A stretch of DNA of 64,000 nucleotides, taken from assembly GCA_016870395.1 (NCBI GenBank), contig VGBT01000007.1, forward strand, positions 17,268 to 81,267, read 5' to 3'. A model generated the notes under the pieces. The model was not told where the DNA came from. It saw only the letters and a program-made list of their open reading frames with translations, and did no database searches. This DNA is from Actinomycetota bacterium. Its GTDB lineage: Bacteria > Actinomycetota > Acidimicrobiia > IMCC26256 > JAENVU01. Both the position numbers and the translations under genes were made by a program. Each line of letters starts with the position of its first letter. Positions within the stretch are counted from its first letter, which is position 1. Positions 12,239 to 59,552 of the stretch are shown here, in pieces.

Positions 12239-13005
12239 TGTTGCTCGCGATCGACACCGGCAACACCCAGACGGTAATCGGCCTCTTCGACGACACCGAG
12301 CTCGCGGACCACTGGCGCATCGCGACGGTGGCGTCGCGCACCTCCGACGAGCTCGCGCTCATGATCCAGCAGTTCCTCGGGTTCCACGGCTTCTCGTTCG
12401 ACGCGCAAGTCACCGGGGTCGCGATCTGCTCCGGTGTGCCAAGCGTCACCGCCGCGTTGCGGGAGATGACGGTGCGCTACTTCGGGTTCGAGGCGCTCGT
12501 GCTCGAGCCCGGGGTGCGCACCGGGATGCCGGTGCTCTACGACAACCCGAAGGAGGTCGGGCCCGACCGCATCGCCGACGCGATCGGCGCCTACGACCTC
12601 TACGGCGGGCCGACGATCGTCGTCGACTTCGGCACTGCCAACACCGTGGAGGCGGTCAGCGCCAAGGGCGAGTATCTCGGTGGCGCGATCTTCCCCGGTG
12701 TCGAGATCTCGCTCGACGCGTTGTTCGGCCGAGCCGCGGCGTTGCGCCGGGTCGAGCTCGTGTCGCCCCGCAACGTGATCGGCAAGTCGACCATCGAGTC
12801 GATCCAGTCGGGGGTGATCTACGGGTTCAGCGGTCAGATCGACGCCATCGTCGACCGGTTCCGAGCCGAGCTCGGGGAGTGCACCGTGGTGGCCACTGGC
12901 GGGCTGGCCGAGCTGATCATGCCGTTCTCCCGTACCATTCAGCACCACGAGCCCTGGCTGACGCTGCACGGTCTGCGAATCGTTTACGAGCGGAACCGAC
13001 CCTGA
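12238..13005 (+). CDS. coaX: Type III pantothenate kinase
   Basis: LAIDTGNT, VGPDR, VVDFGTA, YLGGAIFPG, VATGG, LTLHGL; TGATG overlap with nadC. Confidence 0.95.
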   Translation: MLLAIDTGNTQTVIGLFDDTELADHWRIATVASRTSDELALMIQQFLGFHGFSFDAQVTGVAICSGVPSVTAALREMTVRYFGFEALVLEPGVRTGMPVLYDNPKEVGPDRIADAIGAYDLYGGPTIVVDFGTANTVEAVSAKGEYLGGAIFPGVEISLDALFGRAAALRRVELVSPRNVIGKSTIESIQSGVIYGFSGQIDAIVDRFRAELGECTVVATGGLAELIMPFSRTIQHHEPWLTLHGLRIVYERNRP

Positions 13006-13022
13006 GGAAACGGCGAGAGGGT

Positions 13023-13093
13023 CCAGGAGGCGCTGGCGCCGGTCGGTGACCGGACCCGCAACGACGGGCGCCGGAGCCGACCATCGAAGGAGG
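13023..13093 (+). repeat. Dispersed 63-bp hairpin element, copy 1 (intergenic)
   Basis: CCAGGAGGCGCTGGCGCC-(22 nt)-GACGGGCGCCGGAGCCGACCATCG then AAGGAGG; matches 37572-37642 with the same spacing. Confidence 0.8.
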
Positions 13094-13101
13094 TCCAACC
13101 G

Positions 13102-14088
13102 ATGCGGGTGCTGGTGACGGGGATGGGTGGAGAGCTCGGGACCCGCGTCGCGCAGCTGCTCGAGGAGCGCAGCGAGGTCGACGAGATCGTCGGCGTCGAC
13201 TTCGTCCCGCCTCGGCGCCGCCTTCGTCGCAGCGAGTTCCGCCGGATCGACCCACGTGAGAGGGGAAAGCTGGCCGACTTCGTCGCCGAGGTCGCACCCG
13301 ACGCGGTGGCGCACTTCGGCGTGTACGAGCCCGGCTCGCGCCTCGACCCGCGCCTCGCGGCGGTGTACTCGCACCGCTGTACGATTGCCGCGCTGGGCGC
13401 CGCGGCGCGCACCGGTCGGCTCCGCGCTGTCGCGCTGCGTTCGGGACTCGAGGTCTACGGGCGTGGCCGTGGCCGGCCCGGCGTCCCCGACGAGGACGCG
13501 CCGGTCGCCCCGTCGAGCCCCTACGGGCGCACGTGCCTCGACGTGGAGGCGCTCGCGACCGATCTCGGACGTCGCCACGAGATCCCGGTCGCGGCGCTGC
13601 GGATGGCGCCGGTCGCGGGATCGCACGTGCCCTCACCGCTGGGGCGGGTGCTGCGGCTGCCCCTGGTGCCGGTTCCTGCGCTTGCCGACCCCGCCTTCCA
13701 GCTGCTGCACCAAGAGGATGCGGCGCGAGGGATGGTCGAGGCGTTGCTGCGCGGGTTCGACGGCCCGTTGAACCTCGTTGGCCCCGGCGCGGCGAGCGTG
13801 TGGCAGGCGGTGCGGCTCGGCGGGCGGGTGCCCATGCCGGTGCTCGGTCCGGGTTGGCGGCTGGCGCGACGGGCTGCGGAGCTCGCCGGTGCGCCGGTGC
13901 CGCCGCACCTGATGGAGCTGCTCACGAAGGGGAGGACCGGCGACGGGTCTCGGGCCGTCGAGGCGCTCGGGCTGGTGGGCATGCGTCCCACCCAGGACGT
14001 GTGCGCAGAGCTGTTCGAGTGGGCGACCGTCACACCGTTGCGCAACCCGAGCCCGCTCGCGGTGGTGGCCGACGGAGGACGGCGGTGA
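13102..14088 (+). CDS. NAD-dependent epimerase/dehydratase family protein (Rv0501-like)
   Basis: VLVTGMGGELG Rossmann motif, HFGV, SPYG, FQLLHQEDAARG. Confidence 0.85.
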   Translation: MRVLVTGMGGELGTRVAQLLEERSEVDEIVGVDFVPPRRRLRRSEFRRIDPRERGKLADFVAEVAPDAVAHFGVYEPGSRLDPRLAAVYSHRCTIAALGAAARTGRLRAVALRSGLEVYGRGRGRPGVPDEDAPVAPSSPYGRTCLDVEALATDLGRRHEIPVAALRMAPVAGSHVPSPLGRVLRLPLVPVPALADPAFQLLHQEDAARGMVEALLRGFDGPLNLVGPGAASVWQAVRLGGRVPMPVLGPGWRLARRAAELAGAPVPPHLMELLTKGRTGDGSRAVEALGLVGMRPTQDVCAELFEWATVTPLRNPSPLAVVADGGRR

Positions 14089-36678: not shown

Positions 36679-37779
36679 GTGATCGGCCGCGCTGTTGCCT
36701 GTCCTGACAAGTTTCGCTCCTCGTTGACCGCAGCCGAGGCCGCGGCCGCGATCGCCCGGGGCCTGCGAACGGCAGGCTTCTCCGAGGTCGTGGAGCTTCC
36801 CCTAGCCGACGGGGGCGAGGGAACGCTCGACGCACTGGTTGCCGCGAAGGGCGGTTCGCGCCGTACGACCAGGGTCGCCGGCCCGCTGGGCGACCCGGTC
36901 GACGCCGAGTGGGCCGTCCTGGCCGACGGCACCGGGGTCGTGGAGATGGCGCGGGCCAGCGGGCGTGCCCTCGTCACCGGAAGGCCCGATCCTCTCAAGG
37001 CCAGTACCCGTGGCACCGGGGAGCTGATCGCGGCTGCGGCTCGGGCGGGCGTACGGCGGATCGTCGTCGGGGTCGGCGGCAGCGCGACCACCGATGGTGG
37101 CCTCGCCGCGGTGGAGGCGCTCGGCTGGTCGCTCGCCGGACTCGACGTGGTGGTCGCGTGCGACGACGTCGGAACCGCGTTCACGGCCTCGGCCGAGGTC
37201 TACGGTCCGCAAAAGGGTGCCTCGGCCGCGCAGGTGGCTCTGCTGACGCGTCGCCTCGAGCAGCTTGCCGCGTTGTATCGCGACCGCACCGGCGTCGACG
37301 TGACGACGCTGGAGGGAGCCGGGGCCGCGGGCGGGCTTGCCGGTGGACTGGCTGCGATCGGCGCGCGTCTCGAGCCCGGCTTCGACGTCGTCGCACACGC
37401 CGCGGGTCTCGAGTTCGAGCTCGAAGGTGCTGAGCTCGTCGTCACCGGGGAGGGCAAGCTCGACGCGACCAGCTTCGCGGGCAAGGTGGCCGGCAGCGTG
37501 CTCGCATGGGCGAACGACCTCGGCGTGCCGCACCGAGCGGTCATCGCGGGCCAAGTCACCGAGGAGGGCCGCCAGGAGGCGCAGGCGTCCACCTCGGCCC
37601 AGGATGGAGCAGACGGGCGCCGGAGCCGACCATCGGAGGAAGCGAGCGTGCTGGGCGATGTGCTCGTTCTCGCGCTGACCGATCGCGTGTGGCAGGCGGG
37701 CGAAGCGTTTTCACGCGCCGCGACGCTCGTCGAGGAGTCGGCGATCGAGGCGGGCCGCCGCGCGCTGGGTCTCGACTGA
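36679..37779 (+). CDS. glxK: Glycerate kinase (GlxK family) carrying an in-frame 21-codon insertion
   Basis: CPDKFRSSL, PLADGGEGT, STRGTGEL, GGSATTDGG, GAGAAGGL, VTGEGKLD. Confidence 0.9.
   Translation: MIGRAVACPDKFRSSLTAAEAAAAIARGLRTAGFSEVVELPLADGGEGTLDALVAAKGGSRRTTRVAGPLGDPVDAEWAVLADGTGVVEMARASGRALVTGRPDPLKASTRGTGELIAAAARAGVRRIVVGVGGSATTDGGLAAVEALGWSLAGLDVVVACDDVGTAFTASAEVYGPQKGASAAQVALLTRRLEQLAALYRDRTGVDVTTLEGAGAAGGLAGGLAAIGARLEPGFDVVAHAAGLEFELEGAELVVTGEGKLDATSFAGKVAGSVLAWANDLGVPHRAVIAGQVTEEGRQEAQASTSAQDGADGRRSRPSEEASVLGDVLVLALTDRVWQAGEAFSRAATLVEESAIEAGRRALGLD
37572..37642 (+). repeat. Dispersed 63-bp hairpin element, copy 2 (inside glycerate kinase CDS)
   Basis: CCAGGAGGCGCAGGCGTC-(22 nt)-GACGGGCGCCGGAGCCGACCATCG then GAGGAAG; 24-nt exact match to 13063-13086. 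Confidence 0.8.
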
Positions 37780-38717: not shown

Positions 38718-38793
38718 GACCGGCCAGCGTAGGCGGCCCGCCGTTCCTGGTTCGCCCCGGTGGGCGGCGCGGCCTACACTGCTCGGCAACGCG

Positions 38794-38886
38794 CTCATCC
38801 AGAGCGGCCGAGGGACGGGCCCGACGACGCCGCGGCAACCAGCACTCCGGGTAACCGGGGCCAGGTGCCAATGCCCGAACGATGAG
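38794..38886 (+). ncRNA. SAM-I (S-box) riboswitch aptamer
   Basis: P1 CTCATC/GATGAG, ATCCAGAG, GAGGGACGGGCCC, CGGCAACC and GGTGCCAAT consensus blocks in order. Confidence 0.9.
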
Positions 38887-39023
38887 AGAGCCCCGCAGCG
38901 TGGGCCACCGGTCTCCGGTCCTCCGCTCGAGGCGCTCGACCAATGGCGAGCGCGCCGAGCAGGGCAGCCGTGGGCGACCACCCGGGAAGTGGTGGGCGAC
39001 CACCTGGACACAGGAGCACTGAC

Positions 39024-40262
39024 ATGGCCCATGTGGACTCGTTGCGGTGTCGGGAGTGCGGCCGTACCTACGACGTCGCGCCGATCTACACGTGTGAGTG
39101 GTGCTTCGGCCCGCTCGAGTGCGCGTACGACTACGACGCGATCGCCGGCGCGATCAGCCGCGAGAAGATCGCGGCGGGCCCGCCGAGCATCTGGCGGTAC
39201 GCCGATCTCCTGCCCGTCGACCGGAACCCGGCGGTCGATCTCGGTGCCGGGTACTCGCCACTCGTGCGCGCCGACCGGCTCGCCGCGGAGCTCGGCCTCG
39301 GTGAGGTCTGGATCAAGAACGACACGACCAACCCCACGAACTCGTTCAAGGACCGGGTCACCTCGGTGGCGCTCTCGAAGGCGCTCGAGTTCGGCTTCAA
39401 GGTGGCAGCCTGCGCGTCTACCGGCAACCTGGCCAACGCAGTCGCGGCGCACGCCGCGCACGCGGGTCTGCGCAGCTTCGTGTTCGTCCCGGCGAACCTC
39501 GAGGCCGGCAAGATCGTCACCACGGCGGTGTACGGCGGCAACGTCGTCGCGATCGACGGCAATTACGACGACGTGAACCGCCTGTGCGCTGAGCTCGCGG
39601 GCACCTATCCGTGGGCGTTCGTCAACGTGAACGTCCGTACGTACTACGCGGAGGGCTCCAAGACGCTCGCCTACGAGACCGCCGAGCAGCTGGGCTGGGA
39701 GGTCCCCGACCACGTCGTCGTTCCTGTTGCCAGCGGCTCGCTGCTCACCAAGATCCGCAAGGGCTTCGACGAGCTGCACAAAGTCGGCCTGCTCGATGCC
39801 GAGCCCGAGGTGCGGGTGAGCGGTGCACAGGCCCTGGGCTGCTCGCCGGTCGCGGGCGCGTGGCTCGAGCAGATTGACACGATCAAGCCGGTGAAGCCCG
39901 ACACGATCGCCAAGTCGCTCGCGATCGGGAACCCCGCCGACGGCTACTTCGCGCTCGACGCCGTCCGCCAGACGGGTGGGGGGTTCGCCGCGGTCACCGA
40001 CGACGAGGTCGTCGAGGCGATCAGGCTCCTCGCACGGACCGAGGGCATCTTCGCCGAGACGGCAGGGGGCGTGACGATCGCCACCCTCAAGCATCTCGCC
40101 GAGCAGGGGGTCGTGCGGTCCGACGAGCGCGTGGTCGCGTACGTCACCGGCCACGGACTCAAGACGCTCGACGCCGTCCAGGACGTGGTCGGCCCGACCG
40201 CGACCATCGCCCCCAACCTCGACGCGTTTCACGCGGCGTTCGACCGGGAGGACCTCGCCTGA
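39024..40262 (+). CDS. thrC: Threonine synthase-like PLP enzyme with N-terminal Zn ribbon
   Basis: CRECG..CEWC, NPTNSFKDR PLP lysine, ASTGNLA, EGSKT, SLAIGNPADG, VTGHGLK; exact function may differ (see findings). Confidence 0.88.
   Translation: MAHVDSLRCRECGRTYDVAPIYTCEWCFGPLECAYDYDAIAGAISREKIAAGPPSIWRYADLLPVDRNPAVDLGAGYSPLVRADRLAAELGLGEVWIKNDTTNPTNSFKDRVTSVALSKALEFGFKVAACASTGNLANAVAAHAAHAGLRSFVFVPANLEAGKIVTTAVYGGNVVAIDGNYDDVNRLCAELAGTYPWAFVNVNVRTYYAEGSKTLAYETAEQLGWEVPDHVVVPVASGSLLTKIRKGFDELHKVGLLDAEPEVRVSGAQALGCSPVAGAWLEQIDTIKPVKPDTIAKSLAIGNPADGYFALDAVRQTGGGFAAVTDDEVVEAIRLLARTEGIFAETAGGVTIATLKHLAEQGVVRSDERVVAYVTGHGLKTLDAVQDVVGPTATIAPNLDAFHAAFDREDLA

Positions 40263-57883: not shown

Positions 57884-59552
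<1,669 letters not shown>

Follow-up and report, generated by a model that had tools for sequence, protein, structure and literature searches.

The hairpin element at positions 13,023 to 13,093 of the window (the whole 64,000-nucleotide stretch of DNA analysed here, corresponding to C7:17268-81267 of the organism's own assembly, G000, which comprises 2.98 Mb in 97 contigs and is 98.9% complete) belongs to a lineage-specific family of insertion-derived repeats whose reality is confirmed by sequence comparison, and which appear to target ribosome-binding and gene-end sequences while preserving translation signals and reading frame. Units of 63-66 nt are found in about 52 copies at about 40 loci of the 2.98-Mb genome. 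The best reading, to which we assign a probability of roughly 0.6, is that of a MIRU-like, expression-preserving intercistronic repeat of 63-66 nt, additionally equipped with a conserved hairpin. A small non-autonomous dispersed element had been proposed by a sequence-only reading of three copies in the window; the family proved larger than first described, and none of its copies is found in either of the two congeners.

The three copies of the window all lie on the forward strand. Copy 1 (13019..13095, covariance model R1, 68.3 bits, E 1.5e-14) is located between a type III pantothenate kinase-like gene, whose stop codon occupies 13003-13005, and an NAD-dependent epimerase-like gene of 328 aa (13102..14088 in the ORF list), which is served by the Shine-Dalgarno (SD) sequence of the copy and whose N-terminus can be aligned to its orthologues in G001, G002 and G012 starting at residue 1. 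As originally described, its 18-nt 5' arm, read in the sequence as CCAGGAGGCGCTGGCGCC (13024-13041), differs at two positions from that of copy 2, CCAGGAGGCGCAGGCGTC (37573-37590), the 24-nt 3' arm GACGGGCGCCGGAGCCGACCATCG is identical in both, and AGGAGG/AGGAAG recurs at 63 nt in each. On the basis of the RNAalifold consensus and of pair counts, the 5' arm of copy 1 (13029..13040) is assigned an outer stem GGC (13029-13031), an internal-loop strand GCT (13032-13034) and an inner stem GGCGCC (13035-13040); the fast-evolving core, or terminal loop region, follows (13041..13066), and then the 3' arm (13067..13078), with the inner stem GGCGCC (13067-13072), the loop strand GGA (13073-13075) and the outer stem GCC (13076-13078). 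The minimum-free-energy fold of copy 1 gives the same helix as the consensus. Downstream come a putatively single-stranded tail, GACCATCGA, and the SD AAGGAGG (13079..13093), both conserved in the family alignment A1, of which columns 50-63, in the 3' arm region, are at least 90% conserved.

Copy 2 (37573..37635; covariance-model match 37568-37644, 67.9 bits) is a 63-nt, 21-codon, in-frame insertion in a glycerate kinase ORF (36679-37779), where it encodes QEAQASTSAQDGADGRRSRPS. Copy 3 (59181..59213), for which only a 3' arm had been reported, is indeed a solo 3' half, made of the exact 18-mer GGCGCCGGAGCCGACCAT (3' arm, 59181-59198) followed by GAAAGCAGGAGGACG; it stands between the amtB stop codon (59174-59176) and the glnB start (59214) and carries the SD AGGAGG at 59205-59210. 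An extension of its covariance-model match to 59100 was rejected as a chance match to amtB coding sequence. As originally noted, copies 1 and 3 terminate in the SD of the gene that follows, with an ATG at 13102 and 59214, respectively. Direct reading of copy 3 further reveals a six-codon uORF (ATG AAA GCA GGA GGA CGA TGA, 59197..59217), whose stop overlaps the glnB ATG as ATGA and which is missing from the amtB-glnB spacers of the same genus. The 18-mer has three exact occurrences in the window; shuffled sequences gave 0.48 matches even with 3 mismatches, and none of 100 shuffles reached 4 matches.

Genome-wide, the 18-mer at no more than 2 mismatches gave 43 matches, against 1 for the reversed control, and nhmmer gave 58 at E <= 1. 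The covariance model R1, built from 35 distinct full copies, gave 52 matches, including weaker, decayed copies (30-45 bits). The family consensus reads [GGAGGA]GGCGCAGGCGCCC - core - GGCGCCGGAGCCGACCAUC(G/A)(A/G)AGGAGG, and the unit is ordered as an SD-like GAGGAGG, the 5' arm, a core of about 29 nt, the 3' arm, GACCAUC, and a genuine SD that precedes a start codon by 4-12 nt. Two compensatory pairs occur together in a third subfamily, GAGACG.AGCCGCC ... GGCGGCGGAGUCGACC. Besides single copies, tandem arrays with periods of 65-67 nt were found at C12:38761-38965 (3 units), C22:1-193 with C51:12-116, C8:72956-73097, C40:109-215 and C2:122982-123126, and since the whole unit, core included, is repeated within each of them, these arrays are tandem duplications. 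Three of them, C22:1-193, C51:12-116 and C40:109-215, are placed at contig ends, so that the true copy numbers are probably higher; C51 and C22 share one unit and probably belong to a single array, of 4 copies or more, at which the short-read assembly broke. Solo halves and one core-less derivative of the unit are also present, the latter being a tandem series at C5:11410-11520 with about 36 nt per unit, GAGGCGCAGGCGCGCCGGAGCGGACCGTCGGGGGAG, which looks as if the core had been deleted between two GGCGCC boxes.

The hairpin postulated from the window copies is backed by covariation, although its stem is not a continuous run of about 12 bp. RNAalifold and an independent pair count agree on a helix in two parts, 3 bp on the outside (GGC:GCC) and 6 bp on the inside (GGCGCC:GGCGCC), which are separated by a 3x3 internal loop and capped by a loop region of about 29 nt. 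In the internal loop, G-N-A stands opposite G-G-A, with every position but N at least 90% conserved. Paired cells reach 96.5%, compared to 18-51% when the partner strand is slid, and compensatory changes are seen at four pairs (C-G to U-A, with 14 copies at one pair and 2 at another; G-C to A-U, 2 copies; G-C to C-G, 1 copy), with a covariation score that none of 500 shuffles reached. Single copies show no excess folding stability over shuffled sequence (z from -1.4 to +1.7), and the exceptions to pairing, 5 G-U versus 3 C-A, are uninformative as to folding in RNA or in DNA. Regarding the small hairpin of its own that each middle region had been thought to form, it is found in copy 1 and only weakly in copy 2. 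For the element, no Rfam family matched in the window at the gathering or E-value threshold, with sub-threshold noise only around copy 1. Elsewhere in the window, a SAM-I riboswitch (RF00162, 66.2 bits) occupies 38792-38888 (+), directly 5' of the ORF 38943-40262, which from its N-terminal sequence we take to be a threonine-synthase-type PLP enzyme.

The arms and the core evolve in markedly different ways, with a mean pairwise identity of 0.863 for the arms and of 0.371 for the core, the latter against 0.307 +/- 0.003 for shuffled cores. Judged from these values, the cores are homologous yet nearly saturated. The two middles in the window are indeed 22 nt each, as had been noted, but are not unrelated, and their constant length, considered unexplained at that stage, results from a divergence that proceeded by substitution and rarely by indels, the arms remaining constrained: the core has its modal length in 23 of 35 copies and lies within 1 nt of it in 10 more, the roughly 29% of cores that are 1 nt off the canonical length breaking phase. 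The only dispersed pair which still shares its core is C2:122982/123052 with C64:7226, at 73-77% identity. The contrast between arms and core points to purifying selection, or to concerted evolution, acting after insertion on the arms, the loop bases and the tail, and the conservation of the arms could partly reflect the way in which copies were ascertained. For stop codons in the three core frames, the counts are 4, 6 and 7 of 35; being equally rare in all three, they reveal no avoidance signal and therefore no direct sign of a translation constraint.

That the copies are derived insertions follows from the orthologous sites of relatives, which are empty in nine cases out of nine. In glycerate kinase, the 21-residue insert QEAQASTSAQDGADGRRSRPS corresponds to an exact 21-residue gap in all 13 orthologues from relatives, the DNA of the empty site being ...CGC|GAGGAGGCC... 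or ...CGC|GAAGAGGCGAGCG..., and the target GAAGAGGCGAGCG resembles the element 5' arm GGAGGCGCAGGCG. Eight further loci have short, element-free junctions in relatives, namely tmk, rapZ, nuoH-nuoI, sucC-sucD, coaX-epimerase, amtB-glnB, ribF and a thiolase-like gene. These orthologous junctions were retrieved from the two same-genus genomes and G012 in one search with a chimeric query of ten N-termini, two segments of which (C68 and C12:38761) gave no usable junction. At the locus of copy 1, the same-genus spacer measures 29 nt and lacks the element; between amtB and glnB, the spacer is 15 nt (tccaggaggacgaag) in G001/G002, where the arm is missing, and 37 nt in G000; and the nuoH-nuoI junction reads gaagaggaggtctagGCAAGATG (gaggaggtctagGCAAGATG) in G002 versus GAGGAGGCGTAGGTGccc...(66 nt)...GAGGAGGCGTAGGTGggt in G000. 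By eye, the GC content of G001/G002 is clearly lower than that of G000 at orthologous junctions, and protein identity amounts to 65-90%.

The boundaries of the insertions are informative as to what is targeted. Direct repeats flanking single copies coincide with the SD-like motif or with the 5' arm and vary from 5 to 23 nt (examples are nuoI with 15 nt, C11:52190 with 22 nt and rapZ with an imperfect 23 nt), a variation that does not support a fixed target-site duplication. Both the flanking repeats and the empty sites resemble SD or 5'-arm sequence, in line with the SD-like target originally suggested. The repeats are offset by 58-69 nt, mostly 66 or 63, and 13 of the 18 best-defined unit lengths are divisible by three (p = 0.0009), which, together with the insert of exactly 21 codons in glycerate kinase, upholds the earlier idea that the reading frame is preserved. 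Several copies have a partial next 5' arm after the unit, or a partial 3' tail before it, which indicates a unit without sharp, fixed termini; variable repeats and unsharp termini taken together are not the signature of a staggered-cut transposase.

In terms of position, 32 of 39 loci have a start codon between -11 and +15 nt from the 3' end of the element, most distances being in the range +4 to +7, when ORFs of at least 60 codons with high GC3 are considered and distances are taken from the model's 3' end. A first random-position control for nearby starts was too lax (32% background), and the tight clustering of distances was used instead; this clustering at +4 to +7 identifies the terminal GGAGG of the element as the SD of the downstream gene. 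Copies at gene junctions share the orientation of the downstream gene, and for nine loci the alignment of the predicted N-terminus with orthologues starts at residue 1. From N-terminal reading, we take the downstream genes to include tmk, rapZ, nuoI, sucD, ribF, glnB, cobA, galT, an FGGY kinase and a DinG-like helicase, in addition to TetR, LysR and MerR regulators, SDRs and MaoC dehydratases. They are functionally unrelated and do not form a regulon. Upstream, the co-oriented ORF mostly ends within or right beside the element; a crude six-frame neighbour call proved too noisy at this GC content to class every upstream gene. Exceptions to the junction position are copy 2, inside a gene, and the arrays C2:122982-123126 and C8:72956-73097, which have no co-oriented downstream ORF, the C2 array lying, by eye, between convergent genes.

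The element also carries coding signals. When the 35 copies are read in the frame GAG-GCG-NAG-GNG-CC., the first N turns out to be C (18 copies), T (8), A (5) or G (4). Frame analysis identifies the T variant, TAG, as the stop of the upstream gene at nuoH and at C64:7226, and at C23, C8 and C37 the upstream open frame also ends at the TAG of the element. Where a GTG stands next to the TAG (GGUGCC variant), a mini-ORF opens at once: in the nuoH-nuoI unit, a 22-codon cistron GTG...TAG is lodged between the nuoH TAG and the nuoI GTG (TAG|GTG..TAG|GTG), and at C23 and C64:7226 the stop of the mini-ORF overlaps the downstream ATG (ATGA). The commoner CAG/GCG subtype has no start or stop of its own, and the upstream ORF either terminates before this point or continues across the unit. 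Since most copies are of this subtype, the mini-cistron picture is limited to about 6-8 loci. Read-through ORFs end in a -4 overlap (ATGA/GTGA) at 7 loci or more, including sucC-sucD, tmk, C64:1398, C2:161360 and C12:38761, and this is the same, ancestral overlap as in relatives. A conserved encoded peptide is not evident, read-through frames differing by locus and all three frames being used.

The family is lineage-specific, no other genome among 200 of the order having a comparable excess. The covariance model gave 0 matches in both same-genus genomes and at most 2 weak ones in each of 38 other relatives; for the 14-mer CCGGAGCCGACCAT, 20 occurrences in the own genome compare with 0-1 in each of 40 relatives; and a 12-mer occurs 40 times, versus at most 18 in each of the 200 genomes, with controls up to about 8. 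Diverged relatives nevertheless exist in other genomes. In G004 (C22 of that assembly; L032 1508-1580), one related unit lies between ccmB and ccmC, where a 19-codon mini-ORF, ATG..TAA, encoding MEATGGRRNRSRPSEEEA, directly follows the ccmB TAG and shares bases with the ccmC ATG. By eye, this mini-ORF is about 80% identical to the first 45 nt of ccmC and resembles a tandem junction duplication. The G004 case raised the idea that the family arose at the ccmB-ccmC junction, which was rejected, as this junction has no element in G000. G008, from another genus (C4 of that assembly, minus strand; L033 1500-1800), has an array of at least 5 diverged units of 62 nt, GAGGCGTAGGCGG...CCGCCGAGCCGGAGCCGACC; GAGGCGTAGGCGGGGCAGCTGCGCTCGCGGCCTTCCGCCGAGCCGGAGCCGACCCAGGTCGTC. 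The Acidimicrobiales MAG RDP_SRG_05 contains, on at least 5 contigs (L065, L072, L083, L090, L140), a repeat of greater length (about 90 nt or more, ...CCGGAGGACCCGGAGGCGSAGGCAGGAGCCGAGSCCCYAGGSCGAGGCGACGCCCGGAGCCGACC) that has both terminal motifs of the family but a conserved core.

A scan of the contigs of other genomes with both motifs was set aside, nearly all of its matches being due to chance. A conserved Streptomyces 5' leader, TGAGGCGAAGGTCATC..GGGTTACGTTGGTC..CCGGAGCCGACCGAACGGAGCCCGCGATG (L047 3027-3095 and about 15 other loci), situated upstream of a gene starting MPFAR..., has no Rfam match and probably holds both motifs by chance. In the same line, 116 of 117 matches of a metagenome scan with the 18-mer are chance matches, the only true one, L276, being from the same organism. 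Translated from its reverse complement, the 18-mer would give MVGSGA, and many of the chance metagenome matches (L196-L312) appear antisense to such a sequence, which accounts for the frequency of the 18-mer in unrelated GC-rich DNA.

How such a unit may have spread and been tolerated can be outlined as follows. In its natural phase, it extends from a start-like GTG/GCG in the 5' arm through the variable core, the 3' arm, the conserved tail CCGACCAUC and the SD (GAAGGAGG) to GCG-NAG, which supplies a TAG stop in about a quarter of the copies. Its 5' end thus resembles a gene end followed by an SD, and its 3' end restores a properly spaced SD for the next start. The unit may be tolerated by preserving translation initiation and coupling, with selection presumably holding its length in phase. 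Spread could rely on homology between the SD-like end and resident SD or gene-end sequences, through template switching or illegitimate recombination, with later slippage into arrays and without a staggered-cut transposase. Once in place, the arms, the internal loop and the tail would be under purifying selection and would probably have a role in mRNA, for instance as a local hairpin freeing the adjacent SD or as a protein-binding site.

This outline comes close to that of the MIRUs (Supply et al. 1997, as summarised in PMC12548453), which are presented as short repeats (40-100 bp) at about 40 loci, single or in tandem, found at junctions within operons and oriented with the flanking genes. 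According to the same summary, they are mobile and inserted at start codons, with a small ORF that abuts or overlaps the neighbouring stop and start and is coupled at -4, hence a minimal impact on expression. The likeness is one of architecture; the host here is an uncultured high-GC actinobacterium which, judging from the relatives and a related repeat family, probably belongs to Acidimicrobiales rather than Mycobacterium, and most copies here bring neither start nor stop codon and instead extend an existing frame. Another difference resides in the covarying hairpin with its conserved internal loop, since MIRUs are not known to have dyad symmetry. A second parallel is provided by the Rickettsia palindromic elements (RPEs), palindromic repeats that enter unrelated protein-coding genes in frame and lengthen their products by a peptide segment (PMC10969869), a lengthening also seen here in the 21-residue insert of glycerate kinase and in the C-terminal read-through of seven genes or more. 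However, RPEs measure about 100-150 bp, encode a conserved peptide and are untied to ribosome-binding sites (PMC10969869), whereas the present units measure 63-66 nt, are used in all three frames and usually sit at the SD just before a start codon.

A classical non-autonomous transposable element of the MITE, REP or PATE type is the alternative that survives best, although we consider it unlikely. In that case, an enzyme that is unassembled, lost or unrecognised would act on the arms folded in single-stranded DNA and insert the unit beside GGAGG-like targets, and the SD and frame properties would merely be those of the survivors of selection. The species-specific burst with its empty sites would fit, as would an inverted repeat with compensatory changes and conserved unpaired bases, reminiscent of a recognition hairpin; the core shared by C2:122982/123052 and C64:7226 implies copying of whole units, and the solo halves and the core-less derivative go in the same direction. 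Yet the search for an enzyme was negative: PF01797, the domain of Y1/RAYT (IS200-type) transposases, has 0 matches in the 98.9% complete genome, with a positive control in 6 known genomes, and the kinship with REP/RAYT systems that had been envisaged is not supported. Neither did an IS with matching ends emerge, no 5' arm ... 3' arm pair being found 80-8000 nt apart save one poor coding match on C90, and a looser scan for a long arm-bounded version gave chance matches only. A DUF559/AbiEi nuclease was considered as a partner and rejected, its three loci in the genome carrying a different palindrome, without any R1 match. As a MAG can miss IS elements, a trans-acting enzyme may have escaped the search. 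Besides, flanking repeats of 5-23 nt that overlap the end of the element itself are unlike a fixed target-site duplication, the termini are direct rather than inverted repeats, and saturated cores with conserved arms argue against a recent burst alone.

Compared to REP/BIME sequences, the family shares the short, GC-rich imperfect palindromes, the tens of copies, the restriction to a lineage, and the conserved stems with a variable loop. It differs from them in that GTAG is not conserved (GNAG, with T in about 23%), and in that copies are direct and tandem rather than inverted REPIN doublets and lie 5' of starts rather than after stops. As to MITEs, the Chunjie element of Geobacter uraniireducens (Chen et al. 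2008, cited in PMC10969869), of about 235 bp, has terminal inverted repeats and direct repeats, while the present unit has neither terminal inverted repeats nor a fixed duplication, its ends being SD-like direct repeats and its inverted repeat internal. The family is not a member of the REP/RAYT group or of the classical MITEs, and it is set apart from MIRU, RPE, REP and MITE alike by the combination of a covarying hairpin, a built-in SD and a stop/start mimic.

Somewhat less probable still is a host cis-regulatory RNA module, in which the G-N-A/G-G-A loop of the hairpin and the CCGACCAUC tail would bind a global post-transcriptional factor, protein or sRNA, or serve as a standby site or insulator; the module would have been recruited to about 40 genes and kept there by selection, its mode of spread being secondary. 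Arms, unpaired loop bases and tail that are at least 90% conserved around a core near saturation speak for it, and so do the strict co-orientation, the fixed spacing to the start codon and the related motifs (GAGGCGNAGG ... GGAGCCGACC) in other genera (G004, G008) and in another Acidimicrobiales MAG. It is weakened by downstream genes without common function and by orthologous leaders that lack the element even in congeners, as well as by the missing Rfam match, an unexceptional folding energy, one copy within a coding region and two arrays without a co-oriented downstream ORF. In addition, the 18-mer matches listed for the genome include no complement of the tail encoded in trans. Finally, chance similarity, an assembly artefact or a CRISPR-like array, the last two first suggested by the 66-nt periodicity of matches 65-67 nt apart at contig ends, can be dismissed almost entirely, considering that the sequence between repeats is identical within each array, with no differing spacers, that 43 matches face 1 in the reversed control, and that copies lie inside long, well-assembled contigs, with an independent metagenome contig (L276) agreeing with C7 at 99.98% across one copy.

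In bacteria, small repeats tend to be classed as transposase-dependent (REP, MITE) or left unexplained (MIRU). Beyond the MIRU-like intercistronic repeat favoured here, a bolder and rather doubtful view of the family is that of a self-propagating 'portable gene junction', a 22-codon stop/SD/start module that would be copied with no transposase into other ribosome-binding sites, by homology with SD or gene-end sequence. Its conserved hairpin and tail would have turned into an RNA device (standby site, insulator or protein-binding site) maintained by the host at about 40 genes, and the unit would be part of a wider, undescribed GAGGCGNAGG...GGAGCCGACC superfamily in Acidimicrobiia. With about 40 insertions, known empty sites, variable SD-homologous junctions, a covarying hairpin and two subtypes (stop/start and read-through), the family could show how a repeat spreads harmlessly to ribosome-binding sites, and whether dispersed repeats become functional parts of mRNAs. 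At the level of the organism, enzymes gain peptide tails from it and, in one case, an internal insert of 21 residues. Its arrays break short-read assemblies, and the family would serve as a strain-typing (VNTR-like) marker for the lineage.
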